Positions 9,082-60,590 of a DNA stretch of 64,000 bases are shown here, piece by piece (position 1 is the first letter of the stretch; each line of letters opens with the position of its first letter). This stretch comes from a virus. Its lineage: Duplodnaviria; Caudoviricetes. Both the position numbers and the translations under genes were made by a program. A model generated the notes under the pieces. That model searched no databases. It was not told the origin of the DNA and saw only the letters and a program-made list of their open reading frames with translations. Location of the stretch: the IMG/VR virus record IMGVR_UViG_3300037067_009128, positions 1-64,000 of that record; one strand, 5' to 3'.

Positions 9082-9113
9082 AAACTTATAAACTATCTAA
9101 AAAGGAGATATAA

Positions 9114-41927: not shown

Positions 41928-41946
41928 TTTACTCCTAAGATTTTTT

Positions 41947-42945
41947 TTAATTTTTAACTATAGCACTTTTACCAAAATATTGAAAGTTTAATGTTTTATT
42001 GTCATATATCACATTATCATAAACAAACTTTGAAGGGAAAACTGTAATATTAAAACAAGGAGCTCCAAGATACCCAATTCTCATATGTGTTTGAGGAGAA
42101 TCTTTATACCCCTCAAAATAATCAAAATCGATCTTAATATCATAACTATAATCATTGATTTCTAATCCTAATCCACAACCTTCAATCATTCCTCTAAAAC
42201 TTGATCCTTGAGTTTTAGTTGCTGAAATACCGATAGGACATTTTTCAATGTCAAGATTAGCTCTCATTGCATTAAGCATATGTCCTTTAAAACCTATTTT
42301 ACAATCTTTTATAAATGCTTTCACATTAGATACTTGTCCTTTTAAATCCATTCCAGTTTCTGCTCCTGAAATGTATATATTTTCAAAATTAAATCTATGA
42401 TACCCATTAGGACGATTAACGGGATTAGATTTGATACCCGTAAAAACAGCTTTTGAATCACTTTTTATAATAGCAAAATTTCTAATATTCCAGTATTCTC
42501 CAGCATTCTTATCATATTTTATAGGATCTGTATTAGGTATAACTAAATCAGTAGCAATATGTTCTATTACTGGACTTCCATCAGTTATCCCTTTAACTTG
42601 CAATACAGTTCCATAATCCCAACCAGCATCTTCACCTATTATAGGAACTTCTGTTTTTATACCACCTTTAATTATTGGGTATTTACCATTAAACAATTTT
42701 ACTATTTGATGATCTTCTCTTGCTTTATAGCAAGCATCTTGTATTAAACTAGAACAATCACCATTCCTTGGTCTAACCCAGTATACAGAGTCTTCTGGAA
42801 TATCTGGAATACTCTCTTTCAATTCTTGTAGTGATTTTGCAATGTTAGTAAAATCAGTTTCATAACCTTGAACTTTTTCTTGAAATTCTTTTATAGAATT
42901 GTCTATTTGTTCAAACTTATTATTGAGATCTTCTCCTAGTGACAT
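41947..42945 (-). CDS. Coiled-coil plus parallel beta-helix (pectate-lyase-like) protein
   Basis: DCSSLIQDAC..VKLFNGKY..IIGE..GTVL start; repeating CKIG/CPIG/CGLG rungs. Confidence 0.6.
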   Translation of the reverse strand: MSLGEDLNNKFEQIDNSIKEFQEKVQGYETDFTNIAKSLQELKESIPDIPEDSVYWVRPRNGDCSSLIQDACYKAREDHQIVKLFNGKYPIIKGGIKTEVPIIGEDAGWDYGTVLQVKGITDGSPVIEHIATDLVIPNTDPIKYDKNAGEYWNIRNFAIIKSDSKAVFTGIKSNPVNRPNGYHRFNFENIYISGAETGMDLKGQVSNVKAFIKDCKIGFKGHMLNAMRANLDIEKCPIGISATKTQGSSFRGMIEGCGLGLEINDYSYDIKIDFDYFEGYKDSPQTHMRIGYLGAPCFNITVFPSKFVYDNVIYDNKTLNFQYFGKSAIVKN

Positions 42946-42956
42946 AATATTTCCCT

Positions 42957-43670
42957 TTATAATAATTTATAATTAAGTACTTGTCTATAATTCTTTACAT
43001 CGTTACAAAATTTTGCATATAACTCCTTCCAATTTGGTTTTTGAATATCAAATATCCAGTGTAATGTTTTTATATGTGGATCATTTAAATTAATTTTATT
43101 AACATCATGGTAAGATTTTTGAAATGTAGATATTATTGGTTTAATATTGCCATAAACTAACTTATCATAATTATAAGCATTATATTCTTTATCACAAGTA
43201 TGAATCCAATTAAATTCAAATGCATTTAAAGCATCTAATGCGTCTTGTGTATAAGTATTAAAAGCAGGAATAAAATGGTCTCTATTGAATTTATTGACTT
43301 TAGACATTATATTAAAACTATGCTCAATTCTATGTTCTATTTCATGTTGAGATAAATCTTCAAATTCACCTCCATTAGGCCAAGTATTGATTATATCATC
43401 CCATCCAAATGCATGATCAAATTTATGATTAAATCCATGCATAACAATTTGTCCAACTTTAACTATTGAATTAAATAACTCTATATCTAATTCGTCTATT
43501 AATAATGGACTTACTCCTAGTAAATAAGGAACTTGATTTGATTCAAATATACTTAAAACTTCTGTAATTCTTTCTCTACACCAATTATGATTATAACCAG
43601 GATACCCATAAGGATAATCATCAATTCTAATAACCTGTATTCCTTCACGAACAAAATTATTTACTTCCAT
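42957..43670 (-). CDS. Polysaccharide deacetylase (DUF2334-like)
   Basis: IRIDDYP, LGVSP, MHGFNH, FIPAFN, TLHW. Confidence 0.75.
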   Translation of the reverse strand: MEVNNFVREGIQVIRIDDYPYGYPGYNHNWCRERITEVLSIFESNQVPYLLGVSPLLIDELDIELFNSIVKVGQIVMHGFNHKFDHAFGWDDIINTWPNGGEFEDLSQHEIEHRIEHSFNIMSKVNKFNRDHFIPAFNTYTQDALDALNAFEFNWIHTCDKEYNAYNYDKLVYGNIKPIISTFQKSYHDVNKINLNDPHIKTLHWIFDIQKPNWKELYAKFCNDVKNYRQVLNYKLL

Positions 43671-43678
43671 TTAATTCC

Positions 43679-44233
43679 TTATAAAAATTTAAAAAATTGC
43701 ATTATATGTAATAGTCCACCACGTTCGCCATTTATGTCATAAGATTGATATCTATCTTCTTCATATATAAGTTTAGATGAAAATTCTCCAAAATCTATAA
43801 TTTTAAGCTTTCTATCTGTCATGTTATATAATATATTACTTTCATTCAAATCACCATGAACTATATTTCTTGAAAGTAAATCAATAATCATCTTACTTAG
43901 TTCAGAAATTATCCATAATTTATCTATAAGAGACAATACATATCCACAACTTTCTAAAGAAATATAACTATCTGGTATTAATTCTGTAAATATTTCAATA
44001 TGGTTATAAAAATCAGAGGCTTCTAAGAATTTAGGTACATAATCAATACCTTTTAATTCTTTTAAAAAATCTATTTCTTTATAACCTCTTAAACGATCAT
44101 TATCTACTTTACAAAATGCTTGTCTTTTTTCAGATTTATAATATTTACGATCTTTATTTATAGTTGTTGTATTAGGTATAAACTCAATAAATAAAGGATC
44201 ATTTTTAACACTTATCATTGATTTTTTCTCCAT
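43679..44233 (-). CDS. Protein-kinase-like fold kinase (Kdo/RIO/WbdD-type)
   Basis: FCK, EIDFLKEL, VPK, HGDLNESNIL, IIDFG. Confidence 0.8.
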   Translation of the reverse strand: MEKKSMISVKNDPLFIEFIPNTTTINKDRKYYKSEKRQAFCKVDNDRLRGYKEIDFLKELKGIDYVPKFLEASDFYNHIEIFTELIPDSYISLESCGYVLSLIDKLWIISELSKMIIDLLSRNIVHGDLNESNILYNMTDRKLKIIDFGEFSSKLIYEEDRYQSYDINGERGGLLHIMQFFKFL

Positions 44234-44886
44234 AATCTTAATACATTGTGGTATACACCATTTAATTCATGTACATTAGGTCTATTATTAGCTATAATCT
44301 GAGTATAATCTTTTAAAATTTTAGAATTCCATTGTTCATAATGATCATGCATACTTATATAAGGTACTTCATATTCTGCAGCAAGACCTAATTCAAAATT
44401 CATACAATCACTTGAATGGTCTGAATCATGAAAAAACAAATCAACTTGGTCATCTTTATAGATTTCATCAAAAACATCATATAAAACATTAAAGGTATAA
44501 TCTTTGATAAGTGTCCATCTATCTTTTAAAACTTTAAAAACTCTTTCTCCAGGTTCACCTATTGTTAGTTTATGAGACCCATCTGTAGAATTTTTACCAG
44601 AATCTATTGTTATAAGTTTACCTTTATTATTACGAAACATTCCATATAAAATTGCTTGAGTAGAAGCTCCATTTTGACATCCAGTTTCAATTACTATTTT
44701 AGGTTTTATTAATCTTGTTAATACATATAAAGGAAGATTATAAAATGAAAAAGAATCTCCAGGTCTTAACTCTTTACAAAATAATACTCCTTTATCTATT
44801 TCTTCATTGATAATATCAGAAGCTCCCAATTTTATAACTTCTTCAATAAAATCAGGCTGTAAATAATCTTTTATAATATCTTCCAT
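44215..44886 (-). CDS. Class I SAM-dependent methyltransferase (Methyltransf_24-like)
   Basis: KPKIVIETGCQNGAST, GKLITID, DLFFHDSDHS, MHD. Confidence 0.8.
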   Translation of the reverse strand: MEDIIKDYLQPDFIEEVIKLGASDIINEEIDKGVLFCKELRPGDSFSFYNLPLYVLTRLIKPKIVIETGCQNGASTQAILYGMFRNNKGKLITIDSGKNSTDGSHKLTIGEPGERVFKVLKDRWTLIKDYTFNVLYDVFDEIYKDDQVDLFFHDSDHSSDCMNFELGLAAEYEVPYISMHDHYEQWNSKILKDYTQIIANNRPNVHELNGVYHNVLRLWRKNQ

Positions 44887-45008
44887 TATACCCTCTTTTT
44901 AATTAATACTATTAAAATAATAATAAAAAGTTAATGTAATTATGATACCGAATGCAATCAGTATAAGTCCTCTTAAAAACCAATTATCTTCCATTATATC
45001 CTCTTTTT
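44877..45008. repeat. 24-bp direct repeat (44877-44900 and 44985-45008) flanking a mini-gene
   Basis: tatcttccattata(c/t)cctcttttt, 23/24 identical; contains RBS and start codon on the minus strand. Confidence 0.85.
44899..44994 (-). CDS. 31-aa single-TM protein (not in ORF track)
   Basis: MEDNWFLRGLILIAFGIIITLTFYYYFNSIN; GAGG RBS; TAATG coupling. Confidence 0.6.
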   Translation of the reverse strand: MEDNWFLRGLILIAFGIIITLTFYYYFNSIN

Positions 45009-47057
45009 TGAATATTCTTCATTAGTAAAACAAATCCATAAAGGTCTTCCAATTCTATCTGGGGCATTTATTCCTGGATCAGTGTTTTCTAGACGTTCAA
45101 CTTTATAAAATACATCTTTAAGTAAAGATTCATAAAATACATCTTTTCCATTTCTAATATCATCTGAATGTCCTTCAACTATTACAACACCATCCGTTAT
45201 TTCATTAATTTCTTTTAATATTAATTTTTGATTATTAAAATTTTCAATAATTGACAATAATAATACTACATTAAATCTAACATTATGAAAAACTTCTTTT
45301 GTCGATATATGATTAATATCTACATTCATAAAATTATATCTTAATTGAGGATATAATTCTTTTGACAATTCAATATAATCTTTATCAGAATCTATTCCGT
45401 AAACATTTTTGAATCCTAAAATATATTGATTAACAAAACAACCAAGATTACTTCCTATATCAATTAAGATATTATTAGGGATATTATAAGTATTGATTAC
45501 ATTATTAATTAAATTAATTCTACTTTGTGAATCTCTTAACCCTTCAAATACTATCCCTTCTATTTTAATTGTTTGATAAGGCATATAAAACTTCTTATTT
45601 TTGTATTCAAAAGTTTTGTTATCTACCCATCTTCCTTGTAATTTAGAAAGTATGTTTATTATCTTATTATCTATCATAACTAAAGCATCCTTTAATGGTT
45701 GAATAAAATTCTTTTCTCTATTGTTATTTTCATCAAAAATATCACCTACAAACTCAAAGTCTCTCCTTTCTGTAGGAAAGGGTTTTGGATTAGAGTTGTA
45801 AAAATCAAAATCACTATGTTCAATAGTTTCATCTTTAATAGATGCATATAAATTAGAAAGTAAATCCTGGTCAGCTTGTTTATAATCTTCCTTCTTTGCA
45901 TTTATAAAAAATTTTATATATTTATACAAAGCTCCATTTTTAACTCCCCACATCCCGGCCATTATCAAAGCCGTATGCCAAGGGTGGTCTCTCATTATAT
46001 GGAAATCTTTATCAGATTTTAACCATTCATCAACAGCAGCTTTTTCTCTTAAAGAAAGTCTTGAATCTGTGTCTCTAAAAATAACAATTTCTGCTTCATG
46101 TTTAAATGCAGCATTAAATCTCCATATTGTTGATGACCAATTTCCTAATTCTTCCATTTCAATAACATCAACATTATCAAAAGATTTTAACTCATCAATT
46201 ACATGTTTATAAATTTCTCCAACATAAAATAAACATCTCCAATCGGGGTATATCTCTTTAGCTAATTTAGCATTTTCGATAGCACCTTGTGTGTATTTTT
46301 TATCTATTCCCCACAAAGAGAAACTTATTACTTTTTCTTTGTATGCTATATAGTTAAGATTTAAATATTTATTATATTGTAAATAATCAATAATTCGTTT
46401 TTTTAGAAAAAAGAGAGCACCTGTTGGATTTAATGCCCAATCACCATTTTCATGAAGATTGCAATGCATTCCTCCATAACCGTAATGATCAACATAACTA
46501 GTTCTACTAATAATAACTTTATTATTATATAATTCTCCTACTCGCCAATCAAATCCCCCGTGTTTAGCTATTAACTTTCCACCATGTGTATTTGAGTCAT
46601 CAAGCACTCTTTTTACCATTTCTCTGTCAAGAAATATAGAAATTCCGGGAAGATACTCTCTTATAACTTCAAATTGTTCAGTATCATCAACTGTGAAATG
46701 AGTATGACAATTACTGTTATATAAACTTATTGGAACGTTCCACTTATCATGTAATAAGATTGCCATGTCTTCCCAGTTTGTATCATGGAAAGCATCATTA
46801 TCAGTTAAATAAAGAAACTCATATTCTGAATTATAAAAATCTTTAAAATGTTGTAATCTTTGTTCTTCAATTCCTTTATTTTTACTAATACTTACATGAT
46901 CAGAAAATTGTTTTAACCAAGTTTCATCATATTCAGTAGATCCATCATCATAAATAAAGATATCACTTTCATTTGATACTTGTTTTAATTGATTCAAACA
47001 AAGTTCTGTAATTTTCTTTCTATTGTAAGTTGTTACTGCAATATAAATCTTTTTCAA
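44994..47057 (-). CDS. Three-domain fusion: GT2 + second GT-A-like domain + SAM methyltransferase
   Basis: AVTTYNR..YDDGS..TDND; VISFSLWG..WRF..FRDTDSRL..HIMRDHPWH; YQTI..RD..R..LIDIGSNLG. Confidence 0.8.
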   Translation of the reverse strand: MKKIYIAVTTYNRKKITELCLNQLKQVSNESDIFIYDDGSTEYDETWLKQFSDHVSISKNKGIEEQRLQHFKDFYNSEYEFLYLTDNDAFHDTNWEDMAILLHDKWNVPISLYNSNCHTHFTVDDTEQFEVIREYLPGISIFLDREMVKRVLDDSNTHGGKLIAKHGGFDWRVGELYNNKVIISRTSYVDHYGYGGMHCNLHENGDWALNPTGALFFLKKRIIDYLQYNKYLNLNYIAYKEKVISFSLWGIDKKYTQGAIENAKLAKEIYPDWRCLFYVGEIYKHVIDELKSFDNVDVIEMEELGNWSSTIWRFNAAFKHEAEIVIFRDTDSRLSLREKAAVDEWLKSDKDFHIMRDHPWHTALIMAGMWGVKNGALYKYIKFFINAKKEDYKQADQDLLSNLYASIKDETIEHSDFDFYNSNPKPFPTERRDFEFVGDIFDENNNREKNFIQPLKDALVMIDNKIINILSKLQGRWVDNKTFEYKNKKFYMPYQTIKIEGIVFEGLRDSQSRINLINNVINTYNIPNNILIDIGSNLGCFVNQYILGFKNVYGIDSDKDYIELSKELYPQLRYNFMNVDINHISTKEVFHNVRFNVVLLLSIIENFNNQKLILKEINEITDGVVIVEGHSDDIRNGKDVFYESLLKDVFYKVERLENTDPGINAPDRIGRPLWICFTNEEYSKKRI

Positions 47058-47240: not shown

Positions 47241-47672
47241 TTATATTTGAATCATGGGAACTTGGACTTCCATCATAAGCTTATCTCTTGCTTCATCTTT
47301 TATATATTTATTCAAATAAAATATTTTCTTAACATTAAATGTTATTAAAAGTTTATAACAATTAATACATGGTGGATGAGTTATATAACAAGTTAAAGAA
47401 TCATATTTTCTTTGAAGATTAGAAACAGCTGCAACTTCACCATGAGCACATCTTATACAATGATTATCATGCATTAAACAACCAACATCATCACAATGTT
47501 GAGTTTTTGAGGCAGATGAATTATAACCTATAGCTGCTATTCGATTTTTATCATCAACAAGAACACAACCTACTTTTAATCTAATACAAGTTGCACGTTG
47601 TGAAGCTAATGTTGCTATTCCCATAAATAATTCTTCTCTAGAAATACGTTTATTAACTTTCTTTTTAGGCAT
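47241..47672 (-). CDS. dCMP deaminase (ComEB-like)
   Basis: RATCIRLKVGCVL, IGYN, AHGE, PCINC. Confidence 0.9.
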   Translation of the reverse strand: MPKKKVNKRISREELFMGIATLASQRATCIRLKVGCVLVDDKNRIAAIGYNSSASKTQHCDDVGCLMHDNHCIRCAHGEVAAVSNLQRKYDSLTCYITHPPCINCYKLLITFNVKKIFYLNKYIKDEARDKLMMEVQVPMIQI

Positions 47673-49042
47673 TATATCTCCAATAATTTATTAAAAACTT
47701 CTTCAGGTAATTTTACTTTTTTGTAATAATTATTCATTTTAAAATTTAAATACTCAGAATTACTGTATACATCTTCAATTAAATCTAAATCATTTTCATT
47801 TAATTTATTCTTAAAATCAGGAAAAACTTCACAAAATAAAGCAAGTTGAGTTTCTCTTGAAAATGCAACAAATTTCTTACTTACATTTTTATTTTTTACC
47901 TTTTTATATAATGTGTCAATATTGATTTTAAAATGATTCAATAGGTTTTTATCTAAACAATCAGGTGATTCAGATTGTTTGATTATTTCAATAATTTCTT
48001 CTCTTGTATAAATCTCTTTGATAACAGTGAATCCATCATAATTCTCTAAGTCATTCAAATCACCATCTTTTTTTAAATAAGAATCTGGGTCTTCTCCGTC
48101 AGGTAATAATAATACTTCAAATGGTAATCCTATTTTAATAAATTCTTTTGCATTTCTTTTTATAGCAATTAAGCCTGCATTATCACCATCATACATCATT
48201 AACCATAATGGTGCTAAACTTTTAAGTTTCAATACTTGTTCTTGTTTTAAACTCAATCCAATAGACCCTACAGAATTTTTAAAATCATAACAATGCATAG
48301 TTATTATGTCAAATTGACCTTCAATTAAAAATCCATATCCTTTTTCTTTTATTGACTTTGAAGCTTTATTTAATCCAAAAAGATATCTACTTTTAGAAAA
48401 ATAGAAATTGTCTTGAGTATTAACATATTTAGGATTAAACTCTTTATAAATAGTTCTACCGCTAAAACCTATAGTCCCGATAAGATCATTAAGGGGAATT
48501 GTTACTCTATCAAACAATGAACTCATATAAGTTTCAACAGGAGTATTTTTATTCATTATTTGAAGTAATCCAAGTTCAACTAATTCATTTTTATAATGTT
48601 GAAACTCTTTATATAAATCAAATGAACCACCAGAATAACCTAATTCCCAAAAATCAACTATTTCTTTATTATAACCTCTTTGATTAAATAAATAATCTGA
48701 TGATTCATCTACTCTTGATACAAAATACTCTTTGATATTTTGAAGGATGTTTAAATATGTTTCACCTTCAAGATGAATACCTAATTTTTTAGCAAGATAT
48801 CTAACTGCTTCATCCTTTGTAAGATTATGCATTTTTGCTATAAAATCAAATACATCTCCTTTAAAATCACAACCAAAGCATTTAAAATATTGTTCTTTTG
48901 TATTCACTAAAAAAGAAGGATCTTTGTCAATATGTACGGGACAAACACCTTTGAGATTATCATCATTCTTAAAAGATAAATTAACATATTCAGATATTAT
49001 ATCTTCTATCTTAATTTGATTTTTAATTTCTAATAGATTCAT
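47672..49042 (-). CDS. dnaG: DNA primase
   Basis: CPVH..PSF..CFGC zinc finger; GFSGR, KYVN, EGQFD, YDGDNAG, DPD. Confidence 0.92.
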   Translation of the reverse strand: MNLLEIKNQIKIEDIISEYVNLSFKNDDNLKGVCPVHIDKDPSFLVNTKEQYFKCFGCDFKGDVFDFIAKMHNLTKDEAVRYLAKKLGIHLEGETYLNILQNIKEYFVSRVDESSDYLFNQRGYNKEIVDFWELGYSGGSFDLYKEFQHYKNELVELGLLQIMNKNTPVETYMSSLFDRVTIPLNDLIGTIGFSGRTIYKEFNPKYVNTQDNFYFSKSRYLFGLNKASKSIKEKGYGFLIEGQFDIITMHCYDFKNSVGSIGLSLKQEQVLKLKSLAPLWLMMYDGDNAGLIAIKRNAKEFIKIGLPFEVLLLPDGEDPDSYLKKDGDLNDLENYDGFTVIKEIYTREEIIEIIKQSESPDCLDKNLLNHFKINIDTLYKKVKNKNVSKKFVAFSRETQLALFCEVFPDFKNKLNENDLDLIEDVYSNSEYLNFKMNNYYKKVKLPEEVFNKLLEI

Positions 49043-49044
49043 AT

Positions 49045-49233
49045 TTATGAAAGTTCACCTTTAATAGCTTCTTGTAATTCTTCATTATCTCTTACTGCAG
49101 TAAACAATTCAGAAATCGTTATAAAACTTCCAATTTCTTTAAACCATTTTTCATTTATGAAGATATCTACTGTATATAAATCACACTTTGCTATATCATG
49201 ATAATATGGTTTAATTTTTAATGTTATTTCCAT
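49045..49233 (-). CDS. Hypothetical protein
   Basis: 62 aa ORF downstream of a promoter-like motif. Confidence 0.5.
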   Translation of the reverse strand: MEITLKIKPYYHDIAKCDLYTVDIFINEKWFKEIGSFITISELFTAVRDNEELQEAIKGELS

Positions 49234-49264
49234 TTTTTATACTTATTTTAATTTTTTAATATTA

Positions 49265-49280
49265 CAAATATAAATCTTCA
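49265..49280 (-). promoter_or_regulatory. Putative promoter -7 element TAnnTTTG
   Basis: Minus strand tgaagattTATATTTGtaa. Confidence 0.55.
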
Positions 49281-49281
49281 T

Positions 49282-49398
49282 TTAATAAATATGGATAAAA
49301 GAAACTAACCATTTTATAAATTCATACCCAAGTATAGAAATAATTGCTATTACAATTATAATTATGATTAAGTCGATGAGTTTAAATTCCGGAAACAT
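49282..49398 (-). CDS. 38-aa single-TM protein (not in ORF track)
   Basis: MFPEFKLIDLIIIIIVIAIISILGYEFIKWLVSFIHIY; AAGGAG RBS; TAATG coupling. Confidence 0.65.
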   Translation of the reverse strand: MFPEFKLIDLIIIIIVIAIISILGYEFIKWLVSFIHIY

Positions 49399-49808
49399 TA
49401 TTTCTCCTTATTTTTAGATTTACAATGTATACCATCATCAGTAGGCCCAAAATGAGCATTTGAGTGATTTGATACTTCAAATTCTATCATACAAAGATTT
49501 GCAACATCTACCAAATATTCTAAATTTCCTGTTTTTTGAAAATTTTCAAGTCTTTCAATACATGAACCTATTCTATCCCATTTCATTCCTTGATTTATAC
49601 GCCAATCATTATATCTTAATGTTCCCATAATCACACGATTAGTCATTAACTCAATAAATCTTTTACTCATTAGAGTTTCTTTTAAAACTGGAGCATCAGG
49701 CATAAACTCTCTTTTCTCTTCTTCTTGTTCACATTTCCATAACCATAAATTATGTAAAAAGAATGCCTCATTACCCAAAGGTTTCTTTAAGCAATTTTTA
49801 TTTTCCAT
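49398..49808 (-). CDS. Putative MazG-like/DUF5664-like dNTP diphosphohydrolase
   Basis: MGTLRY..W, GNLEYLVDVANLCMIEF, all-alpha NTP-PPase-like pattern. Confidence 0.45.
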   Translation of the reverse strand: MENKNCLKKPLGNEAFFLHNLWLWKCEQEEEKREFMPDAPVLKETLMSKRFIELMTNRVIMGTLRYNDWRINQGMKWDRIGSCIERLENFQKTGNLEYLVDVANLCMIEFEVSNHSNAHFGPTDDGIHCKSKNKEK

Positions 49809-49820
49809 TTTTACTCCGAT

Positions 49821-50822
49821 TTATTCAGAAAGTAATTGATGTTTGTCTACTGATTGTAAGTATTCTTTGGCTTGTTTTAATATATATTCTCCTACTTGAG
49901 GAACAATACTTTTACCTATTTGATCTGCTACTCCATTTTCACTCCCAAAGAATTGAAAATCAAGTGGATACCCCATTAAGCAAGCATTTTCTCTATTAGT
50001 AAGAGTTCTATTTTCTGTTGGATGAATATATCTTGTAGAACTTCCCATTATTACTGGAGCAGGTTTATCAAGTGCAAGTCTTCTTTGTTGAGAACCGGAA
50101 TACATTGATTCTCCAGTTCTTAATCTTGACATCTTTTCAATTTGTTCATCAGAATGTTTTGGGAATTTATCATTATATAAAACACAACCTTCACTCCTAA
50201 CTTTTTCTAACATTTCAAATGCAGATCTGATAGTTAATTGACCTCGTTTGTCTTCTAAAGGTGGTTTTAAAAAGAATCTGAATGGGTATAAACTACCAAT
50301 AACAAATAATCTATCTCGTACTTGAGCAATTCCAACTTCAGTAGGGTTAATTCTGTGTTCTTCAATATAATAATCAGGAAGTTCAATTTCTTTCTTACTT
50401 ATCATATGTTTTAAAACTGTTCCACCTGCAGTGGCTTCAAATCTTAAATAATTTCTGACACTTGGTAAGTTTTCTAATATAAATATTATAGGTTTTCTAT
50501 CTATAATTTCTTGTACAAATTGAACATATTCAAATTCATCAAAGTCTTTAGTTTGAACATTAACAACATTTTTACTACTTCTACCTGCAGAACTAATTTC
50601 ACCACAAGATGGACTTCCCCAAACAATATCAGCTTTCATATTGTAGAACGCTTTCAATTGTTGAGACCACATAGTATCTGGGAAATTAAAACGATGTGTC
50701 TTAATATTAAAGTATTTTCTAGGTTCAATTGCCCATAAAGTTTTTAAACCTACATTTCTTGCTGCTAATAAAGAGGCTCCCGCTCCGCCAAAAATTACTC
50801 CAAATGTTATGATCTTTTCCAT
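49821..50822 (-). CDS. C5-cytosine DNA methyltransferase-fold enzyme A (motif X GKS)
   Basis: FGGAG, GSPSC, LENL, QVRDR, RTLTNRENACLMGYP, QIGKSI. Confidence 0.85.
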   Translation of the reverse strand: MEKIITFGVIFGGAGASLLAARNVGLKTLWAIEPRKYFNIKTHRFNFPDTMWSQQLKAFYNMKADIVWGSPSCGEISSAGRSSKNVVNVQTKDFDEFEYVQFVQEIIDRKPIIFILENLPSVRNYLRFEATAGGTVLKHMISKKEIELPDYYIEEHRINPTEVGIAQVRDRLFVIGSLYPFRFFLKPPLEDKRGQLTIRSAFEMLEKVRSEGCVLYNDKFPKHSDEQIEKMSRLRTGESMYSGSQQRRLALDKPAPVIMGSSTRYIHPTENRTLTNRENACLMGYPLDFQFFGSENGVADQIGKSIVPQVGEYILKQAKEYLQSVDKHQLLSE

Positions 50823-51136
50823 TATTTATAATCGTATTCTAATGAGTTGTGTAAAAAGTTAATTTCAGGAATAGATAATTCATAATTAATATTTGAACTG
50901 ATATAAAATTCTATGACTTCAAGAAATGCAATCGATTGTTCTATCAATAAAATTTCTTCTTTGATTTTATTTCTTACTTCTTCTTTTAATTCTTTACTTA
51001 AATTTCCTTTTTCAGTATCAATTATAAGATTTTCCTTTCTATCAATACTTGCTTTTAATTTTCCTATTTTTGAAGTTGAAAGAGATTGAATTTGACTACC
51101 AGAAATATTGATTTTTAATGATTCAAACATAAACAC
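50822..51136 (-). CDS. Hypothetical coiled-coil protein between the two MTase paralogues
   Basis: Coupled ORF, GAGG RBS. Confidence 0.5.
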   Translation of the reverse strand: MFMFESLKINISGSQIQSLSTSKIGKLKASIDRKENLIIDTEKGNLSKELKEEVRNKIKEEILLIEQSIAFLEVIEFYISSNINYELSIPEINFLHNSLEYDYK

Positions 51137-52089
51137 CTCATTATTTGTTTTCCTAATTCTTCAGCAACTGGAGGAGAAATACTTTTGCCTATTAAATCTA
51201 AAGAATCATTTTCTTTTCCTATAAATTCAAAATCTAAAGGAAATCCTTGAAAAGTTGCACATTCTCTTACATTTAAGACTCTTGGTTCAAATGGATGTAC
51301 ATATCTTGTACAATGAGAAGTAATTGTAGGGCATACTTTTTGAGGGTTTAATTTCCTATTATTCTGACCACCATAAAACGATTCACCATATTTTAAATTT
51401 TTGAAACCTTCCATTCTTTCTTTTGAATGGTGTGGATTTTCATCATTATATAATGGAGGTTTAAAATTTAAATCTCTTATTTCTCTTTCATTATCCAAAG
51501 TTTCTAATACTTCATTTACACTTTTAACATGGTAGTTAATAGGCATCTTAAAAGTAAAATTATATTTCTTCTTATATAAAATTACGTAAATCCTGTTTCT
51601 TTGTTGTGGAACTCCAAAAAAATAACTATTGAGATTTAAAAATTCAGAATTGTATTCTCCATATTCAATAAATGCTTCAGTAGGTAAATGGATTACTCTA
51701 TCTTTTTGAAACGAAAAGAATTTTTCTATTTTTGTTAGATATTCAATAATTATAAACTCAGCATTTCTTGATAATAATTTTCTTAAAGATTTAATAAAAT
51801 CAAAATCATCAATTGTAAAGGTTTTCAATTCACTACGATCTTCTCGTTTCATTCCTAATGATGATAGCTGTGCACAAGACGGAGAAGAAATCAAAACATC
51901 AATTTTCATATTATCAAATTCATCAAAATCATCTGAGATATTTATGTTAGGAAAATGGTATTCCCAAGTTTTAATATTTTTATAGAAAAAATCTCTATCA
52001 TCTAATATAAATGAAGGTTCAAATCCAGCTTGTTTCAATCCAAGAATATTACCTATACCAGAAGAAATTCCACCACAAGTTTTATTCAT
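51115..52089 (-). CDS. C5-cytosine DNA methyltransferase-fold enzyme B (motif X GKS)
   Basis: SSGIG, SSPSC, IEYL, GVPQQRNR, RVLNVRECATFQGFP, LIGKSI. Confidence 0.8.
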   Translation of the reverse strand: MNKTCGGISSGIGNILGLKQAGFEPSFILDDRDFFYKNIKTWEYHFPNINISDDFDEFDNMKIDVLISSPSCAQLSSLGMKREDRSELKTFTIDDFDFIKSLRKLLSRNAEFIIIEYLTKIEKFFSFQKDRVIHLPTEAFIEYGEYNSEFLNLNSYFFGVPQQRNRIYVILYKKKYNFTFKMPINYHVKSVNEVLETLDNEREIRDLNFKPPLYNDENPHHSKERMEGFKNLKYGESFYGGQNNRKLNPQKVCPTITSHCTRYVHPFEPRVLNVRECATFQGFPLDFEFIGKENDSLDLIGKSISPPVAEELGKQIMRCLCLNH

Positions 52090-52661
52090 TTAATTCCTCT
52101 CATACATTCAGTTTTATCAATTTTAGCTTGAGTTAAAACCTTTTTAACATAATCTTGTGTTAAAACAGTTTTAGTATCTATTTTAATTATAGGTGCTTCA
52201 TTCATAATTAAATAATCAACTGTTTTCATATAAATCTTTTGAATTTCTAATATTTCTTCAAATGTAAATAATCTTTCACCTCTAGTTTCAAATCTTGATT
52301 TTAAAACATTTTCATCTGAACAATAAGTAATAAAAACTTGAACATCTTTATTTAATTCTTTATTGAAAAGGTATTTATAAACATAATCAATATCTGTATC
52401 TCTATTAAAGAATTTAGAATAAACCAAAGATGAAATTAATCCTCTATCTAGTACAAAATCATATTGTTTAGCTAAAGGAAATATTGAATCAAAGAAAAAT
52501 CTTGTGATCACTTCAATTTGATTCTCATTTAATTTCTCACGTTTATCTAATTTTAAGATATCTAATCTTTTTTTAATAACAGGGATACATTTAATATCAG
52601 AAATCATTTTTGCTAAAGTTGATTTCCCCGATAAATCAACTCCGTCTACTATTATTAACAT
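52086..52661 (-). CDS. dNMP (thymidylate-type) kinase
   Basis: IIVDGVDLSGKST, LDRGLISSLVY, RFETRGE. Confidence 0.85.
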   Translation of the reverse strand: MLIIVDGVDLSGKSTLAKMISDIKCIPVIKKRLDILKLDKREKLNENQIEVITRFFFDSIFPLAKQYDFVLDRGLISSLVYSKFFNRDTDIDYVYKYLFNKELNKDVQVFITYCSDENVLKSRFETRGERLFTFEEILEIQKIYMKTVDYLIMNEAPIIKIDTKTVLTQDYVKKVLTQAKIDKTECMRGIK

Positions 52662-53052
52662 TCTTTTTTTCTCCTACTTCTGTTGAAAAATCTTTAATAA
52701 AAATAATTGAATCATTTGTAATTTTAAACCAATCTTTCAAATCTGGGTATTCATCATCCATTATTGATTTAATTATTTTTAACATATTACTTCTACCAAT
52801 TTGATTATGTCCTTGAAAATGGTCATAAACACATATACATCCATTAGGATTCCTTATAGCCATTTCAATAAATGTTATAGCTAATAATTTGGATCTTCCT
52901 TCTCCTATATGTTCAGTAGGATCTAATAACCATCTTATTGATTGTATATGTTGTTTTTGAGTTAATGTTAATTTATCCGGGTCTTTATCAATAGATAATA
53001 TCTCATTAATATCATTTAATTTTCGAACTAATGTATTTGAATTTATAGACAT
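52636..53052 (-). CDS. Hypothetical protein
   Basis: AAGGAG RBS; GEGRSKLLA resembles a degenerate P-loop. Confidence 0.5.
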   Translation of the reverse strand: MSINSNTLVRKLNDINEILSIDKDPDKLTLTQKQHIQSIRWLLDPTEHIGEGRSKLLAITFIEMAIRNPNGCICVYDHFQGHNQIGRSNMLKIIKSIMDDEYPDLKDWFKITNDSIIFIKDFSTEVGEKKNVNNSRRS

Positions 53053-53099
53053 AAAATACTCCTTTTATTTTAAAAACATTATATTAAATATAATACTAC

Positions 53100-54035
53100 T
53101 TATAATTTAATAACATTAAAATCTAATAAATTTTTTGAGTTTATCGACCAGTCATCTAAAAGTTTATCCTTTTTTAGGTATGCATGTAGTATTGCAAAAT
53201 AATAACTTTTAGCAAAATTACTACTAAATTCTTTATCATTTATACCTAGTTCACTAACTTCATAATTAGGTACTTCGCACAAATCAATTAGGTCATCTAT
53301 CAACTCAACATCTTTTTTAGTAAATGATCCATCATCTTCAAAAAATATCCAATCTTGTTTTATTAGTTTTGTGATAGTATTCTTTACTGAACCGGTAACA
53401 TCTCTTTTCTTTTGATAGTATATTTCAGGTACAAAATGAAAATAACTACCTAATTTTAAATTAGTTTCTGAAGCAACATATCTTTGTAATAATGTATGGT
53501 GAAAAACATCATAAGGTAATAAATTCATAACATCATTAACTCTCATATTAACATACACATCAAGTTCACCATTTCTGTTCATAAACTGTATTGTTAGTGT
53601 ACAAGGTCTTCTTGGATAAAGATCTCTAGTCATAAGATATTTATCATCCCATATATTTAGAATACATTCAGAATATCCTTTTTTAAGACGTTTTATAATA
53701 ACAGGTAATTGAGAATTATAAACATCTCCATAACTATAACAAAATCCTTCAAAATCTTCTTCTTCATTTTTTAATTTTTTTGCCCAATTAGGTCTAAATT
53801 GATAAGCTGTTCCTGGATTATTTCTACTTTCTTTTTGAGAAAGACGATTAACTCCTTCTACAAAACACCAAGACCAATTCTTTCTAATAGATATTAAAGA
53901 ATTACAAGGATTTGTTAATTCAAAAAATACTCCTGGGTAACTCTTAAATTTTCCTACAATTTGTCCTGTTGATTCAAGAGTTTCTAAGATTTTTAAATAT
54001 ATATTATAAAAATTATTTTCTTTAAGAATTAACAT
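53100..54035 (-). CDS. Thymidylate synthase homologue, dCMP-modifying type (hydroxymethylase-like), divergent
   Basis: RPCTLTIQF, MRVND, PYDV (Asp at the TS Asn position), LGSYFH; probable start ATG 54035. Confidence 0.75.
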   Translation of the reverse strand: MLILKENNFYNIYLKILETLESTGQIVGKFKSYPGVFFELTNPCNSLISIRKNWSWCFVEGVNRLSQKESRNNPGTAYQFRPNWAKKLKNEEEDFEGFCYSYGDVYNSQLPVIIKRLKKGYSECILNIWDDKYLMTRDLYPRRPCTLTIQFMNRNGELDVYVNMRVNDVMNLLPYDVFHHTLLQRYVASETNLKLGSYFHFVPEIYYQKKRDVTGSVKNTITKLIKQDWIFFEDDGSFTKKDVELIDDLIDLCEVPNYEVSELGINDKEFSSNFAKSYYFAILHAYLKKDKLLDDWSINSKNLLDFNVIKL

Positions 54036-55071
54036 AATCAACCCAATTTGGATACATTTTTTGAAATTCTTCATGTAAAGGAATCATCAATTCCCTCATT
54101 TGAGGATGTGCAGCATTAGATGTTCTCATATAAAAAATCCATTGCCATTCTTTCAGATTAGTAGTAACAACAATTTCCGTTTTTATATGGTGACTCAATT
54201 TACCTCTAGCTTGTTGAGGTTGAAGACCATAATTTATAGCATTTAAATATCTTGATTCATTAATTGCACAATCAAAGAAGAATTCTTTATCAATATCAGA
54301 ACTAAACTCAAAATTTCTTTTTTCACCTTCATGATATTCATGTTCAGATATGTTAACCCAAGGAGGTATTATATAAGTTAATTGATTTCCAAATTTATCT
54401 TTACTATAATTACAATATCTTGTACTTTCTTGTGAGAATGCAATATTGTTACGATGTCTTACAAGTTCATGAGTAACTCCTCTATCACAAACAAAATTAA
54501 CAGAAACACATTCATGAATTAACTTCTCATCAAATGTTAAAAGTTCAGTATTGTTGAGTTCAAAGAATAAGGTTTGATTATCTTTTTCATATGTATGTTT
54601 AATTACCGGAAAAGGTTCTTTGTTTATTAAATCTTTAAAAAATAATGAGTATTTATTAATTAAATAATAATACAATTCTAAAAACATAAAATTATCTTCT
54701 ATGTCATTTACTTGTTTAATATAATTAAAAACATCAATAATTAAATTTCTAAATGCTCTTACATTTCCTGAGACAAAACATCTATGATAACTATGGGCTT
54801 TATCTCTTGAGAGTTTTAAATATTTTGTTGACATTCCATCATTGAATGTAATAAACCATTTATAGAATGCTGAATTAGTTATTGCAAAAATAAGATTATG
54901 ATGTTCAAGAACTGAATAATGATTTCTTTCTTTTATTTTACTTATAAACTTAATATAACTATCATCAGTAATTAAACATTCAGATTGATAACAAACCCTT
55001 CCGCAATTTTCTATTTTTTTATAAGGGTTATCTTCTTTTATAATTTCAAAATAAGGTTTTATTAATCTCAT
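54022..55071 (-). CDS. thyX: Flavin-dependent thymidylate synthase
   Basis: GRVCY, HYSVLEH, DRGVTHELVRHR..FSQESTRY, AHPQMR. Confidence 0.92.
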   Translation of the reverse strand: MRLIKPYFEIIKEDNPYKKIENCGRVCYQSECLITDDSYIKFISKIKERNHYSVLEHHNLIFAITNSAFYKWFITFNDGMSTKYLKLSRDKAHSYHRCFVSGNVRAFRNLIIDVFNYIKQVNDIEDNFMFLELYYYLINKYSLFFKDLINKEPFPVIKHTYEKDNQTLFFELNNTELLTFDEKLIHECVSVNFVCDRGVTHELVRHRNNIAFSQESTRYCNYSKDKFGNQLTYIIPPWVNISEHEYHEGEKRNFEFSSDIDKEFFFDCAINESRYLNAINYGLQPQQARGKLSHHIKTEIVVTTNLKEWQWIFYMRTSNAAHPQMRELMIPLHEEFQKMYPNWVDYVNS

Positions 55072-55073
55072 GT

Positions 55074-55301
55074 TTATTCCTCATCATTTTCATCTTCTTC
55101 ATCTTGAACTAAATATTCTGGCCATTTACCAGAACTTTCATATTCTCTGACACAATCAATTGCATACTGTTCTATTTGTTTTTTCAAATCTCCTGCAGGT
55201 ATGAGTTTAGATGAATTTACATTAAAACTAGCATTAGTATTGATCTTTTTATTGTCTAAAGACTCAGATGTTATTATAATTGATATTAAACATTTATCCA
55301 T
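55074..55301 (-). CDS. Hypothetical protein with acidic tail
   Basis: AAGGAG RBS. Confidence 0.55.
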   Translation of the reverse strand: MDKCLISIIITSESLDNKKINTNASFNVNSSKLIPAGDLKKQIEQYAIDCVREYESSGKWPEYLVQDEEDENDEE

Positions 55302-55320
55302 TAAATTAGCTCCTTTTTAA

Positions 55321-55956
55321 TTAATAATTACTTTCTTGTCGAAATTGATTTACTCTTGATTTTTGATAATACATATTAAGAATTTCAATAGGTTTCATTT
55401 TTAAAAATAAGATGTTAAGATATTTAATAAAAGCTTTTGATAAAAACGATTGATACTTGACAATATCTGTTGAAACATGAGTACATTTCCATGGTTTTAT
55501 TTTTAAACAATTCATAGTTTTACCAAGGATTTTTATAAAATCTCTCAATTCTATATCAAGAGTTTCATCATCTAATAATTGAGCATCAAGATATTTATCA
55601 TAAGGTTTAAAATCACAAAAAACTTCAGCATCTATACTTGATAATAAACAAAGTTCAACAATAAAATGTAAACCGTCCATCATTTCTTCTTTATAGTGTA
55701 CTTCATCATGAAAATCATCTAAAGCTTCTAAAGCCTCACCAATTTCTTCAACAATTCTCCAAGCAAAATTCTTCAATAAATTCTGATCTTTACCATTATC
55801 TATATTACAAAATAAATTCTCTGGATAATAAAATCCATTTTTAACTTCAATAGGTGCATATTTTATCGCTAATTCATGTTGACGTTTAAAGATCAGAGGA
55901 ATTAGATCGATGGTATCTTTTTCAGAAAATTCTGTGGTATAATCATTAATATTCAT
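55321..55956 (-). CDS. Dimeric all-alpha dUTPase/dCTPase-like dNTP pyrophosphatase
   Basis: EEIGEALE, EEMMDGLHF, KPWK, YYQKSRVNQFRQESNY. Confidence 0.8.
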   Translation of the reverse strand: MNINDYTTEFSEKDTIDLIPLIFKRQHELAIKYAPIEVKNGFYYPENLFCNIDNGKDQNLLKNFAWRIVEEIGEALEALDDFHDEVHYKEEMMDGLHFIVELCLLSSIDAEVFCDFKPYDKYLDAQLLDDETLDIELRDFIKILGKTMNCLKIKPWKCTHVSTDIVKYQSFLSKAFIKYLNILFLKMKPIEILNMYYQKSRVNQFRQESNY

Positions 55957-59966: not shown

Positions 59967-60590
59967 TTAATCCTTAAATAAGGCATCTAGGATTTCTTTA
60001 TCAAGTTTATTATTTGACACTGTTTTGATTATTTTAACTAATTTTGCAATACCATTTCTACGTTTAGCTCCTAATATTTTAGCAATAGTTGTTCTTGAAG
60101 CATCGGGGAATGCTAATCTAAGTTGAAAAGTTTTTCCAGCTCTTTTACTTACACTAAAAATTATATCATGTAATCTGTGTATATCTTCTATAAATCTTTC
60201 ATCAATTTTAATTTCACCACTGTCGAAAACATATTCTTCAAGATTCTCAATTTCTAAATTAGGATCCATTCTTGAATTACAAGTATTTTTTCCTTCTTTA
60301 TCTGTTTTATTTATCTCTCTTATTACTCCTTGTTTAACTATGTGGTATACCCAACCTAAAGCATTGTCCCATCTATTCTGGTCGAATTTGAGTATAGCTT
60401 TCCAGAATGATTCAAATGCTATAATTTCAATATCACTTTCTTCAAATACTCCATGTTTATCATGAAAGTTTTTCAATCCAAAATATTTTTTTATCTTTTT
60501 AAAATAAAACTGTAATTCACAATCACTTGGGGATTTTTTATAATTCTCAATAAAAAGTAATAAATCTTCATTAGTTATTAGGTTTTTCAT
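59967..60590 (-). CDS. Phage sigma70-family factor
   Basis: SDIEIIAFESFWKAILKFD (region 2); SRTTIAKILG (region 4 HTH). Confidence 0.65.
   Translation of the reverse strand: MKNLITNEDLLLFIENYKKSPSDCELQFYFKKIKKYFGLKNFHDKHGVFEESDIEIIAFESFWKAILKFDQNRWDNALGWVYHIVKQGVIREINKTDKEGKNTCNSRMDPNLEIENLEEYVFDSGEIKIDERFIEDIHRLHDIIFSVSKRAGKTFQLRLAFPDASRTTIAKILGAKRRNGIAKLVKIIKTVSNNKLDKEILDALFKD

Follow-up and report, generated by a model that had tools for sequence, protein, structure and literature searches.

An uncultured phage operon linking probable synthesis of C5-modified cytosine nucleotides with two atypical methyltransferase-like enzymes

Our analysis reveals a phage operon that links the predicted synthesis of C5-modified cytosine nucleotides with two atypical methyltransferase-like enzymes, an arrangement that is kept across relatives. 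The virion DNA probably carries a previously undescribed combination of base modifications. We tentatively propose that, in this uncultured lineage of phages, the operon may be the part of the replication module devoted to nucleotide modification, made up of two coupled halves. The first half, nucleotide supply, is based on homology and residue signatures, and the part played by the second, the methyltransferase pair, is one that we infer. The source record is that of an uncultured groundwater phage (117 kb, 27% GC, genome 95% complete) and holds the 64-kb window, that is, the whole stretch of DNA analysed here. Every gene named in a preliminary description of this window was found, on the minus strand and in the order that it gave. 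Family matches come from Pfam and PHROG profiles, and the lone named gene without one is the "MazG-like" ORF at 49398-49808. The features are as follows.

55321-55956, minus: dUTPase_2-family all-alpha NTP pyrophosphatase, 211 aa (PF08761, E 8e-7; phrog_12184 nucleotide pyrophosphohydrolase, E 3e-21)
55074-55301, minus: conserved 75-aa protein, no family match; weak orthologues (29-32% identity) in the same place in 4 relatives
54022-55071, minus: ThyX flavin-dependent thymidylate synthase (PF02511, Thy1, E 1e-34)
53100-54074, minus: TS1, cytosine-nucleotide-type thymidylate synthase (TS) homologue with a MilA-like fold (PF00303, E 3e-9)
52636-53052, minus: phage-specific 138-aa ORF, no family match and no orthologue in relatives
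52086-52661, minus: Tmk-like dNMP kinase (PF02223, weak, E 7e-6; phrog_761, E 2e-12)
51115-52089, minus: methyltransferase B, atypical DNA C5-methyltransferase fold (PF00145, E 3e-32)
50822-51136, minus: conserved 104-aa helical protein between the methyltransferase genes, no family match; orthologues likewise placed
49821-50822, minus: methyltransferase A, second atypical paralogue of the C5-methyltransferase fold (PF00145, E 1e-25)
49398-49808, minus: phage-specific 136-aa ORF, no Pfam match and no orthologue in relatives
47672-49042, minus: DnaG-type primase (Zn_ribbon_DnaG, DNAG_N, and Toprim_2 domains)
47241-47672, minus: dCMP-deaminase-family enzyme (PF00383, E 9e-19)
39894-47057, minus: phage-specific glycan island of 8 genes
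37103-39835, minus: family A DNA polymerase (DNA_pol_A, E 1.5e-68) with an N-terminal UDG-like domain (weak, E 1.6e-4)

Comparison with relatives narrows the membership of the system that had been described. The NTPase, TS, kinase, methyltransferases, and deaminase are kept in relatives, unlike the glycan island, ThyX, and the "MazG-like" ORF, which are phage-specific. ThyX, for which no counterpart was found in related contigs, the island, and three small ORFs are present in this phage alone. The name "MazG-like" did not survive either: even a search at E 5 brought no Pfam match for the ORF, and a language-model atlas pointed only weakly to PRA-PH/MazG clusters (score 0.81-0.84). Among the conserved genes, the NTPase, from its sequence a candidate dCTPase/dUTPase, has orthologues of 43-48% identity in the same place in 4 related contigs, and the orthologues of the kinase and the deaminase show 48-51% and 50-56% identity, respectively.

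The case for a cytosine nucleotide is carried by the TS homologues. Compared with E. coli ThyA, TS1 retains Cys146, Arg166, and Asp169, whereas Asn177 is replaced by Asp, His147 by Thr, Leu143 by Arg, and Glu58 by Asn. The Asp belongs to a "PYD" motif and, as had been claimed, aligns with ThyA Asn177 and with the Asp of T4 gp42, so that TS1 should act on a cytosine nucleotide. To this copy in the window must be added a second Asp177 homologue, TS2, which lies outside it at 73195-74022 of the genome. All copies of TS1 and TS2 have Asp in place of Asn177 and Thr or Ser in place of His147, and all retain Cys146 and Arg166; Asp169 is retained in every copy but one (Ser in TS2 of relative L020). 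Asp177 paired with a residue other than His147 is associated with cytosine-modified contigs (PMC8670742), and a preprint likewise ties Asp177 without His147 to cytosine-modified phage DNA and places 70% of the deaminase genes of cytosine-modified contigs at most 3 kb from a TS gene, vs 6% of those of unmodified contigs (bioRxiv 10.1101/2024.12.05.627091). The residues support the earlier reading of the TS, kinase, NTPase, and deaminase genes as a set for base modification. As for the product, the AlphaFold2 model of TS1 (pLDDT 85.7) has the CMP hydroxymethylase MilA as its top solved match (TM 0.72-0.74), over the full length and including a C-terminal helical extension, and the best PDB sequence match is to 5-hydroxy-dCMP synthases (9iqc, 9iqu; E 8e-8). 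Position 143 is Arg in TS1 and TS2, where methylases have Leu and T4-type hydroxymethylases have Asp/Glu (PMC13326640). Because TS1 is MilA-like and retains the folate-side Asp169, it would most likely add a hydroxymethyl group.

Methyltransferases A and B are 33% identical. Both retain the catalytic Cys, Glu, and Arg and lack the motif IV Gln (SPSCGE, ENL, QxRxR, and GKS in A; SPSCAQ, EYL, QxRxR, and GKS in B). The Lys of "GKS" does align with the motif X Asn of HaeIII, DNMT1, and 3g7u, as first described. The model of B (AlphaFold2, pLDDT 91.5) has the fold of these three proteins, and a Foldseek search with it placed CmoX (8yf3) at rank 26. Near homologues of B number only 15 and all read G[KR] at motif X, with Lys and Arg exchanged for one another across the family; the A lineage has Lys or Arg wherever the motif is readable, and its distant members read SPPCSS[YF]S..GK. 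In the first paralogue of distant relatives, motif X is Cys or Ala and a Lys-Arg is shifted to just after the catalytic Cys, so a carboxylate clamp at that site is not universal in the clade. The catalytic Cys does not vary across the clade, nor do the Glu of motif VI and QxRxR, and the glycines of motif I and the acidic residue of motif II are retained. The motif IV Gln and motif X Asn, which in canonical enzymes sit on either side of the C5 pocket, are lost throughout, even from members without a basic motif X. Canonical enzymes among the 150 best profile matches read PPCQG..GNAVPP almost without exception. These active sites suggest that A and B transfer a group other than methyl. In all close relatives, an orthologue of the 104-aa protein lies between the two genes.

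A basic motif X has a published precedent in CmoX, a natural C5-transferase that makes 5-carboxymethylcytosine. Its Arg350, in place of Asn, is in contact with the carboxymethyl moiety of carboxy-SAM and restricts the enzyme to this cofactor, for which E. coli's own CmoA suffices when CmoX is expressed alone (PMC12783734). Similarly, engineered M.MpeI N374K is a carboxymethyltransferase that uses carboxy-SAM from host CmoA (cited in PMC12783734). A and B have Lys at this very site, and CmoX, which reads SPPCSAFS..GR, has likewise lost the motif IV Gln. The preliminary description could not match the system to a pathway known to it. With CmoX published, this no longer applies to the natural change from Asn to a basic residue; what stands is the separate clade, the Lys, and a phage in which neither CmoA nor a CmoY-type ligase was found. 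A quick tree keeps the clade apart from CmoX, and phmmer at E 1e-3 did not reach 8yf3. CmoA (TIGR00740) was detected neither in the 95%-complete phage genome nor in 4 related virus records, no related locus held an ORF like E. coli CmoA, and a CmoY-type (Asn-synthase-type) ligase was neither found in this phage nor recognised in related contigs. Among published CmoX contigs, about three quarters have CmoA (PMC12783734). Carboxy-SAM supplied by host CmoA is an assumption here.

The same residues bear on whether A and B are simply a SAM-dependent 5mC anti-restriction pair, with a tolerated change of Asn to Lys, beside a standard nucleotide-supply module. Their Pfam and PHROG class is that of DNA cytosine methylases, the full set of catalytic motifs is present, and TS, kinase, dUTPase, and deaminase genes are frequent in phage replication modules. 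Yet the clade lacks the canonical Gln and Asn and has kept a basic residue through deep divergence, the equivalent CmoX residue dictates the cofactor (PMC12783734), and TS enzymes with Asp177 fall outside the standard dTMP synthases (PMC8670742; PMC13326640), which makes this explanation rather improbable.

The reading that we prefer, while judging it plausible rather than probable, combines a pre-replicative supply of C5-substituted pyrimidine with the transfer, in the manner of CmoX, of an anionic alkyl group from host carboxy-SAM. Conservation of the module in all 12 distinct contigs that extend far enough upstream speaks for it. The dUTPase_2-type NTPase would convert dCTP and dUTP to monophosphates, TS1 and TS2 would alkylate the cytosine nucleotide at C5, with TS1 most likely hydroxymethylating it, and the Tmk-like kinase would rephosphorylate the product. 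The deaminase-family enzyme may shunt some of the (modified) dC nucleotides toward dT/dU, and ThyX, in this phage only, would be an additional source of dTMP. In A and B, presumably ancient duplicates, the conserved Cys would attack C6 of cytosine in DNA and an anionic alkyl group would be transferred in place of methyl, most likely carboxymethyl from carboxy-SAM made by host CmoA, with the motif X Lys/Arg at the site that holds the carboxylate in CmoX (Arg350) and M.MpeI N374K. Virion DNA would then bear two C5 marks, the first built in at replication and the second added later at unsubstituted cytosines, and the glycosyltransferase island of this phage alone may decorate the hydroxyl handle. 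If, as in T4 or Xp12, the NTPase and TS enzymes brought about complete replacement of cytosine, the methyltransferases would be left without a C5-H substrate.

Alternatively, the pair could act on the premodified base. Under full replacement by hmC via the TS enzymes, C6 of hmC in DNA would be attacked, the hydroxyl (or an activated form) expelled, and a nucleophile joined to the exocyclic methylene to give a new 5-substituted methylcytosine, with Lys/Arg as a general acid or binding an anionic leaving group or nucleophile. In vitro, C5-methyltransferases reportedly couple thiols to hmC and both attach and release aldehydes (Liutkeviciute, Klimasauskas, and colleagues), which favors such chemistry. 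So does gene order. Our survey took in about 25 related contigs, of which 12 distinct ones had enough upstream DNA to be counted; the methyltransferase clade directly follows Asp177 TS paralogues in all 12, in some as TS1-TS2-MT-x-MT. A lack of such co-occurrence in other genomes was part of what the preliminary description named as refuting its proposal, and the survey shows the two kinds of gene together instead. Read directly in the sequence, the kinase stop also overlaps the start of methyltransferase B in the ATGA proposed earlier, and the clade-wide loss of both pocket residues, even where motif X is not basic, and the failure to find a phage CmoA fit as well. But synteny across the lineage extends to the whole replication module, which leaves adjacency little weight as a sign of functional coupling. 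No natural precedent was found in the literature searched, the retained AdoMet-binding motifs would go unexplained if no SAM-type cofactor were used, and the Lys/Arg site has a specific experimental meaning in CmoX (PMC12783734). We regard action on hmC as somewhat unlikely.

The polymerase raises a thymine-side possibility, which the preliminary description had not considered. Here the Asp177 TS enzymes would yield 5-methyl- and/or 5-hydroxymethyl-dCMP, and, once these are phosphorylated, the deaminase would carry them on to dTTP and/or 5hm-dUTP. The genome would be T-supplied or T-modified (hmU, perhaps glycosylated by the island), leaving unsubstituted cytosines as an ordinary methyltransferase substrate, so that C5 substitution and C5 transfer would no longer conflict. 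In the preprint, dCMP-deaminase-family enzymes beside Asp177 TS genes convert 5mdCTP to dTTP and 5hmdCTP to 5hmdUTP (bioRxiv 10.1101/2024.12.05.627091); the enzyme described here is a candidate for such conversions. Most relatives lack ThyX or ThyA despite about 73% A+T, but ThyX in this phage and the canonical ThyA (LPPCH) of relative L024 would be needless if 5mdCTP supplied dTTP. Similarly, the nearest cultured relatives of PolA are the polymerases of SPO1, Shanette, and CP-51, whose UDG-PolA group belongs to hmU phages (PMC13697223), but identity is only 24-25% (24% with SPO1), motif A is divergent, and some relatives have PolA without the UDG domain. The island and UDG-PolA reported earlier are both present, the UDG match being weak. 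The island encodes a GT2 and class I methyltransferase fusion, Methyltransf_24, a small kinase-like protein, DUF2334, two unknowns, Glyco_trans_1_2, and a phrog_14945 glycosyltransferase, amounting to three glycosyltransferase-like genes and two class I methyltransferase domains. All eight lack counterparts in the related contigs, in which PolA comes directly after the deaminase or is separated from it by one small ORF. As originally reported, the genome gave no match to Tet_JBP or T4 beta-glucosyltransferase, which is weak evidence of absence because control genomes were silent for both families too. Overall, we consider the thymine-side explanation improbable.

The substrate conflict would also be settled, with full replacement retained, if C5-substituted phage DNA were immune and the pair modified only host cytosines, for shut-off, phage-nuclease targeting, or as a decoy for modification-dependent restriction. 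This idea, highly improbable in our judgment, fits the location of the pair in the replication module, but no observation supports it and no modification-dependent nuclease was recognised in the part of the genome scanned.

With its two-mark reading, the operon can be set beside several known systems. The hmC set of T4 comprises gp56 dCTPase, gp42 dCMP hydroxymethylase, gp1 kinase, Cd deaminase, and glucosyltransferases, and it shares with our phage an NTPase, an Asp177 TS homologue, a kinase, a dCMP deaminase, and glycosyltransferases, here in the island. Unlike T4, which has no C5-methyltransferase, the phage has two TS paralogues of differing architecture, TS1 carries Arg143 instead of Asp/Glu and Asn58 instead of Glu, the kinase is Tmk-like instead of gp1-like, and a T4-type glucosyltransferase match is absent. 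We know of no C5-methyltransferase described for Xp12. In the available part of the preprint, which makes no mention of an associated C5-methyltransferase, Xp12-type 5mC phages have, as here, an Asp177 TS a few kb from a dCMP-deaminase-family gene, but unlike this lineage they have one TS homologue (bioRxiv 10.1101/2024.12.05.627091); most relatives of our phage have no thymidylate synthase beyond the Asp177 type. MilA of mildiomycin biosynthesis (PDB 5jnh, 5b6d) has Asp177 in common with TS1, but identity is only 16-18%, and MilA serves antibiotic production in Streptomyces and favors the ribonucleotide. The 5-hydroxy-dCMP synthases of RB69, DLP3, and HY126 (PMC13326640; PDB 9iqc, 9iqu) share the TS fold and Asp177, but their diagnostic change of Asp169 to Asn is missing from TS1 and TS2, which retain Asp169. 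M.MpeI N374K shows the same change of Asn to Lys in motif X, though it is a single point mutation engineered into a canonical CpG methylase (cited in PMC12783734), whereas here the change is natural and clade-wide, with the motif IV Gln also lost. Finally, the CmoX/CmoA/CmoY system of Synechococcus phage S-B43 makes 5-carboxymethylcytosine and its glycine amide (PMC12783734; PDB 8yf3). Like CmoX, A and B have a C5-methyltransferase fold, Ser-Pro-x-Cys without Gln after the Cys, and a basic motif X, and they are phage-encoded and, as proposed here, post-replicative. They differ in having Lys instead of Arg, in their separate clade, and in a setting without CmoA in this phage and 4 relatives and without a CmoY-type ligase in this phage. 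Unlike CmoX, they always come as two paralogues, and the pair invariably shares its locus with Asp177 TS paralogues, an NTPase, a kinase, and a deaminase.

Phage DNA modifications govern escape from restriction, CRISPR, and modification-dependent defenses, and they are also a source of epigenome-sequencing tools. Our analysis describes a phage gene module that unites two known routes to cytosine C5 modification that are seemingly mutually exclusive, a thymidylate-synthase (TS) type acting before replication and a methyltransferase type acting after it. Judging from their motifs, the paired methyltransferase-fold paralogs A and B would be anionic-alkyl transferases, with carboxymethyl taken from host carboxy-SAM as the likeliest group. 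The module lies in the window, positions 1-64,000 of an IMG/VR virus record 117,325 bp long, estimated to be ~95% complete, with a G+C content of ~27%.

Genes of the module and its surroundings in the window, assigned by profile search
55321-55956, minus strand: dUTPase_2-family NTPase
54022-55071, minus strand: ThyX
53100-54074, minus strand: TS homolog TS1
52086-52661, minus strand: Tmk-like kinase
51115-52089, minus strand: PF00145 protein B (profile E 3e-32)
49821-50822, minus strand: PF00145 protein A (profile E 1e-25)
47672-49042, minus strand: DnaG primase
47241-47672, minus strand: dCMP deaminase
39894-47057, minus strand: sugar-handling gene block (glycan island)
37103-39835, minus strand: PolA, with a weakly UDG-like N-terminus

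All ORFs named in the preliminary description are present, head to tail on the minus strand, and profile searches back their families with one exception. The 136-aa ORF at 49398-49808, called MazG-like in that description, had no MazG/PRA-PH profile match in Pfam, even at E 5, and gave a weak language-model atlas lead (0.81-0.84) to PRA-PH/MazG clusters. The proposed coupling of the kinase to B can be read directly in the sequence, where the kinase stop overlaps the B start as ATGA. Tet_JBP and T4 beta-glucosyltransferase were unmatched, which agrees with the earlier failure to recognize either enzyme type, although weakly, as the controls for both were silent. Within the glycan island, a 184-aa protein-kinase/RIO/Kdo-kinase-like protein (43679-44233, minus strand) could phosphorylate a sugar or hydroxyl handle. 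Elsewhere in the window, the DnaB-type replicative helicase (60571-62301, minus strand) contains an intein: its Intein_splicing match falls between those to DnaB and DnaB_C. In relatives, DnaB, PolA, RecA, and one TS gene contain inteins or LAGLIDADG genes. A 207-aa protein (59967-60590, minus strand), kept in all relatives between DnaB and an SF2 helicase, has a weak match to sigma-70 region 2 and is possibly a phage sigma factor. Beyond the window, a 364-aa radical SAM protein, possibly an activase for anaerobic RNR or an enzyme of base modification, immediately precedes an ATP-dependent DNA ligase (genome 67560-70015, or L001:4560-7015 in our handle for that stretch).

The catalytic motifs Pro-Cys (IV), Glu (VI), and QxRxR (VIII) place A and B, which share 33% identity, in the DNA cytosine-5 methyltransferase superfamily (PF00145). 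Family-wide, Cys72, Glu116, Gln162, Arg164, and Arg166 are invariant, and both proteins also retain the motif I glycines and the motif II acid. The cofactor side departs from the canonical residues (PCQ, and GN at motif X): the pair reads SPSCAQ / SPSCGE and GKS, with Ala or Gly replacing the post-Cys Gln, where canonical matches in the same search read PPCQG..GNAVPP. The Lys of GKS aligns with the motif X Asn of HaeIII, DNMT1, and 3g7u. Furthermore, a confident AlphaFold2 model of B (pLDDT 91.5) predicts a DNA C5-methyltransferase fold matching 3g7u, HaeIII, DNMT1, and HhaI.

Near homologs of B number only 15 among 5.8 billion proteins, and all 15 carry G[KR] at motif X. In a wider survey, in which 1.8 billion representatives were searched by profile and the matches were motif-typed, the ~50 best matches formed an atypical clade lacking both the Gln and the Asn, and matches under ~170 bits were almost uniformly PPCQG..GNAVPP. 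The clade holds two old paralog lineages. In the second, A-like lineage, motif X is Lys or Arg in every readable case, with distant members reading SPPCSS[YF]S..GK; the first, B-like lineage reads either PSCAQ with G[KR] or PPCK[RS] with G[CA]. In nearly all members in which both motifs are readable, one position or the other is basic; the exceptions are a few from the first lineage. The metagenome scan was queried with the A-lineage alignment, a broad 32-sequence alignment being too diverse.

CmoX, a natural carboxymethyltransferase, has Arg350 at the motif X position, where it contacts the carboxymethyl group of carboxy-SAM (PMC12783734). The enzyme takes carboxy-SAM only, and supply by E. 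coli's own CmoA is possible (PMC12783734). Like A and B, CmoX (SPPCSAFS..GR) is without the post-Cys Gln, and the engineered M.MpeI N374K carries the identical Lys at motif X. We favor anionic-alkyl transfer because this residue match to CmoX and N374K is both specific and experimentally backed. Yet A and B differ from CmoX in several respects. Where CmoX has Arg (SpCmoX Arg350, HhaI Asn304), both have Lys, leaving the position basic; Arg is found there in some family members (proteins P0008, P0012, P0017, and P0018). The catalytic motif points both ways, the pair reading SPSC and distant members of the clade reading the SPPC of CmoX. A phmmer search missed the SpCmoX structure (8yf3) at E 1e-3, and in a quick tree the true CmoX relatives (such as P0161, E 5e-60 to 8yf3) fell outside the A/B clade.

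Carboxymethyl transfer must also be weighed against the absence of CmoA, since phage CmoA, often with a CmoY ligase, is the usual context of CmoX. TIGR00740 was unmatched in the phage's own genome and in four related virus records, and no E. coli CmoA-like ORF was found in ~25 related loci. Likewise, PF00733, the Asn-synthase-type ligase, was unmatched, and the scanned parts of the remaining genome held no relevant gene. Class I methyltransferases adjoining the module in two related contigs (L004 6736-7344 and L006 5931-6566) were rejected as CmoA analogs, as they matched UbiE/MenG-type models only and not TIGR00740. Between the two methyltransferase genes of one relative (L004:11565-12957) are an AdoMet decarboxylase homolog (PF02675; TIGR03330, E 7e-7) and a DUF3326 protein. 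We discounted these as a cofactor clue and treat them as an insertion, given that they occur in one relative only and that the same site holds homing endonucleases or Pyr_excise genes in others. The variability of motif X in the first lineage is a further point against carboxymethyl transfer.

The other half of the module centers on TS homologs. Aligned with E. coli ThyA and T4 gp42 (ThyA numbering), TS1 keeps Cys146, Arg166, Asp169, Trp80, and Tyr94 and has Asp in place of Asn177, Thr in place of His147, Arg in place of Leu143, and Asn in place of Glu58. Its description as a dCMP-type homolog was borne out, with Cys146 and Asp177 present in TS1, in a second homolog (TS2), and in all orthologs. 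Of the positions linked to cytosine-modified viral contigs, Asp177 and a non-His residue at 147 show the strongest association (PMC8670742). TS1 and TS2 differ from T4-type dCMP hydroxymethylases, which have an acidic residue at 143 and Glu58/Glu60, in carrying Arg143 and Asn58, and TS1 keeps the Asp169 that is changed to Asn in 5-hydroxy-dCMP synthases (PMC13326640). The methylase rule calls for Leu at 143 and the T4 hydroxymethylase rule for Asp/Glu; Arg143 satisfies neither, so the residues do not fix the TS products. An AlphaFold2 model of TS1 (pLDDT 85.7) best matched the CMP hydroxymethylase MilA over its full length (TM 0.72-0.74), compared with ~0.5 for ordinary TS. TS2 (genome 73195-74022; L001:10195-11022, plus strand; 275 aa) lies outside the window in the early region, ~20 kb from TS1. 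It is the shorter of the two and has Asp177; its phosphate clamp is the canonical Arg-Arg, and a His-x-Tyr motif is present. Loss of the clamp is not a general trait of TS1, as orthologs keep Arg126 and Ser occurs in this copy only. Two or three TS paralogs per phage were also found in related contigs L019, L020, L023, L024, L117, and L119.

Substitution at C5 before replication is in apparent conflict with carboxymethyl transfer by A and B. Partial replacement would resolve this conflict by leaving two marks on the DNA, one TS-made and one A/B-made, and we consider it the best reading. Methyltransferases show side reactions on hmC in vitro. Alternatively, A and B could represent a dedicated C5-methyltransferase-fold clade that acts on hmC already in the phage DNA, exchanging the hydroxyl for another group via covalent C6 catalysis. 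We think this less likely than partial replacement; if true, it would be the natural counterpart of those side reactions, a cytosine analog of the post-replicative hmU hypermodification pathways, and a new enzyme chemistry on DNA. Less likely again, the deaminase could divert what the TS enzymes make toward thymine, in which case both pyrimidines would be modified in this phage. A preprint demonstrates deamination of 5mdCTP and 5hmdCTP (bioRxiv 10.1101/2024.12.05.627091), and such a shift agrees with the SPO1-like polymerase (PMC13697223), but ThyX fits it badly.

Gene neighborhoods bear on whether the two halves belong together. We typed ~25 related contigs from four collections with our own profiles. 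In each of the 12 distinct contigs with enough upstream DNA (12/12), the order was NTPase, Asp177 TS1 (sometimes with TS2 or a third TS), kinase, first methyltransferase, small ORF, second methyltransferase, primase, deaminase, PolA. Atypical methyltransferases and TS homologs thus do co-occur, as the preliminary description anticipated. We read this as one old event rather than many independent ones, because the whole replication module is syntenic across the lineage. Relatives share the core order but have no counterpart of ThyX, of the ORFs of 138, 136, and 62 aa, or of any part of the glycan island. In other members, sugar-related genes sit at different points of the module: L024 has CTP_transf_3, L019 a sulfotransferase, and Clostridium phage CPAS-15 a glycosyltransferase. 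In L024, a distant relative (L024:3060-3932 and 8531-9274), there are three consecutive TS genes, of which the second encodes a canonical ThyA (LPPCH), and the CTP_transf_3 cytidylyltransferase gene is flanked by those for the second methyltransferase and the primase. In CPAS-15 (L021; MN417334.1 12445-15216), the NTPase adjoins a P-loop kinase, the glycosyltransferase, and a TS2-like Asp177 TS homolog, directly before PolA; this block looks like an hmC-glycosylation-type module in a cultured isolate. The NTPase of cultured C. perfringens phages has 36-37% identity, and a tblastn search with the kinase against phages gave no match.

The record originates from a groundwater metagenome. A sequencing-run search returned two DNA matches, groundwater and a landfill metagenome sharing slightly more than half of the words sampled, with no RNA runs among the matches listed. 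None of 50,697 phage records matched the region in a DNA search at near identity, so there is no cultured close relative at that level. The genome has no tRNA genes, and therefore no host clue from that source. The closest genome-collection copies are on contigs binned as Nanoarchaeia and Pacearchaeota MAGs (L026, DATDSF010000038.1, 121 kb; L027, NZDU01000050.1). An archaeal host was set aside, as the bins probably reflect mis-binning of low-GC phage contigs by composition, given that the replication genes are bacterial-type (sigma-70-like, DnaB, DnaG, PolA, RecA). The bins are still a host hint worth attention, because the samples are groundwater.

Our findings indicate that the module has been kept in an uncultured phage lineage whose members have diverged deeply. 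If A and B are natural Lys-type carboxymethyltransferases that use host carboxy-SAM, then the CmoX concept would reach a second, independent clade, one that the published Arg-only search criterion overlooked. Because the genes are short and self-contained, the question is directly testable in E. coli. In the literature, we found no description of natural Lys-type enzymes or of their link to TS homologs. Compared with known systems, the methyltransferase half would act like CmoX, yet it stands apart in its motif X residue, its sequence clustering, and its CmoA context. The half made up of the NTPase, TS, kinase, and deaminase would act like the T4 and Xp12 pathways, but with two TS paralogs.
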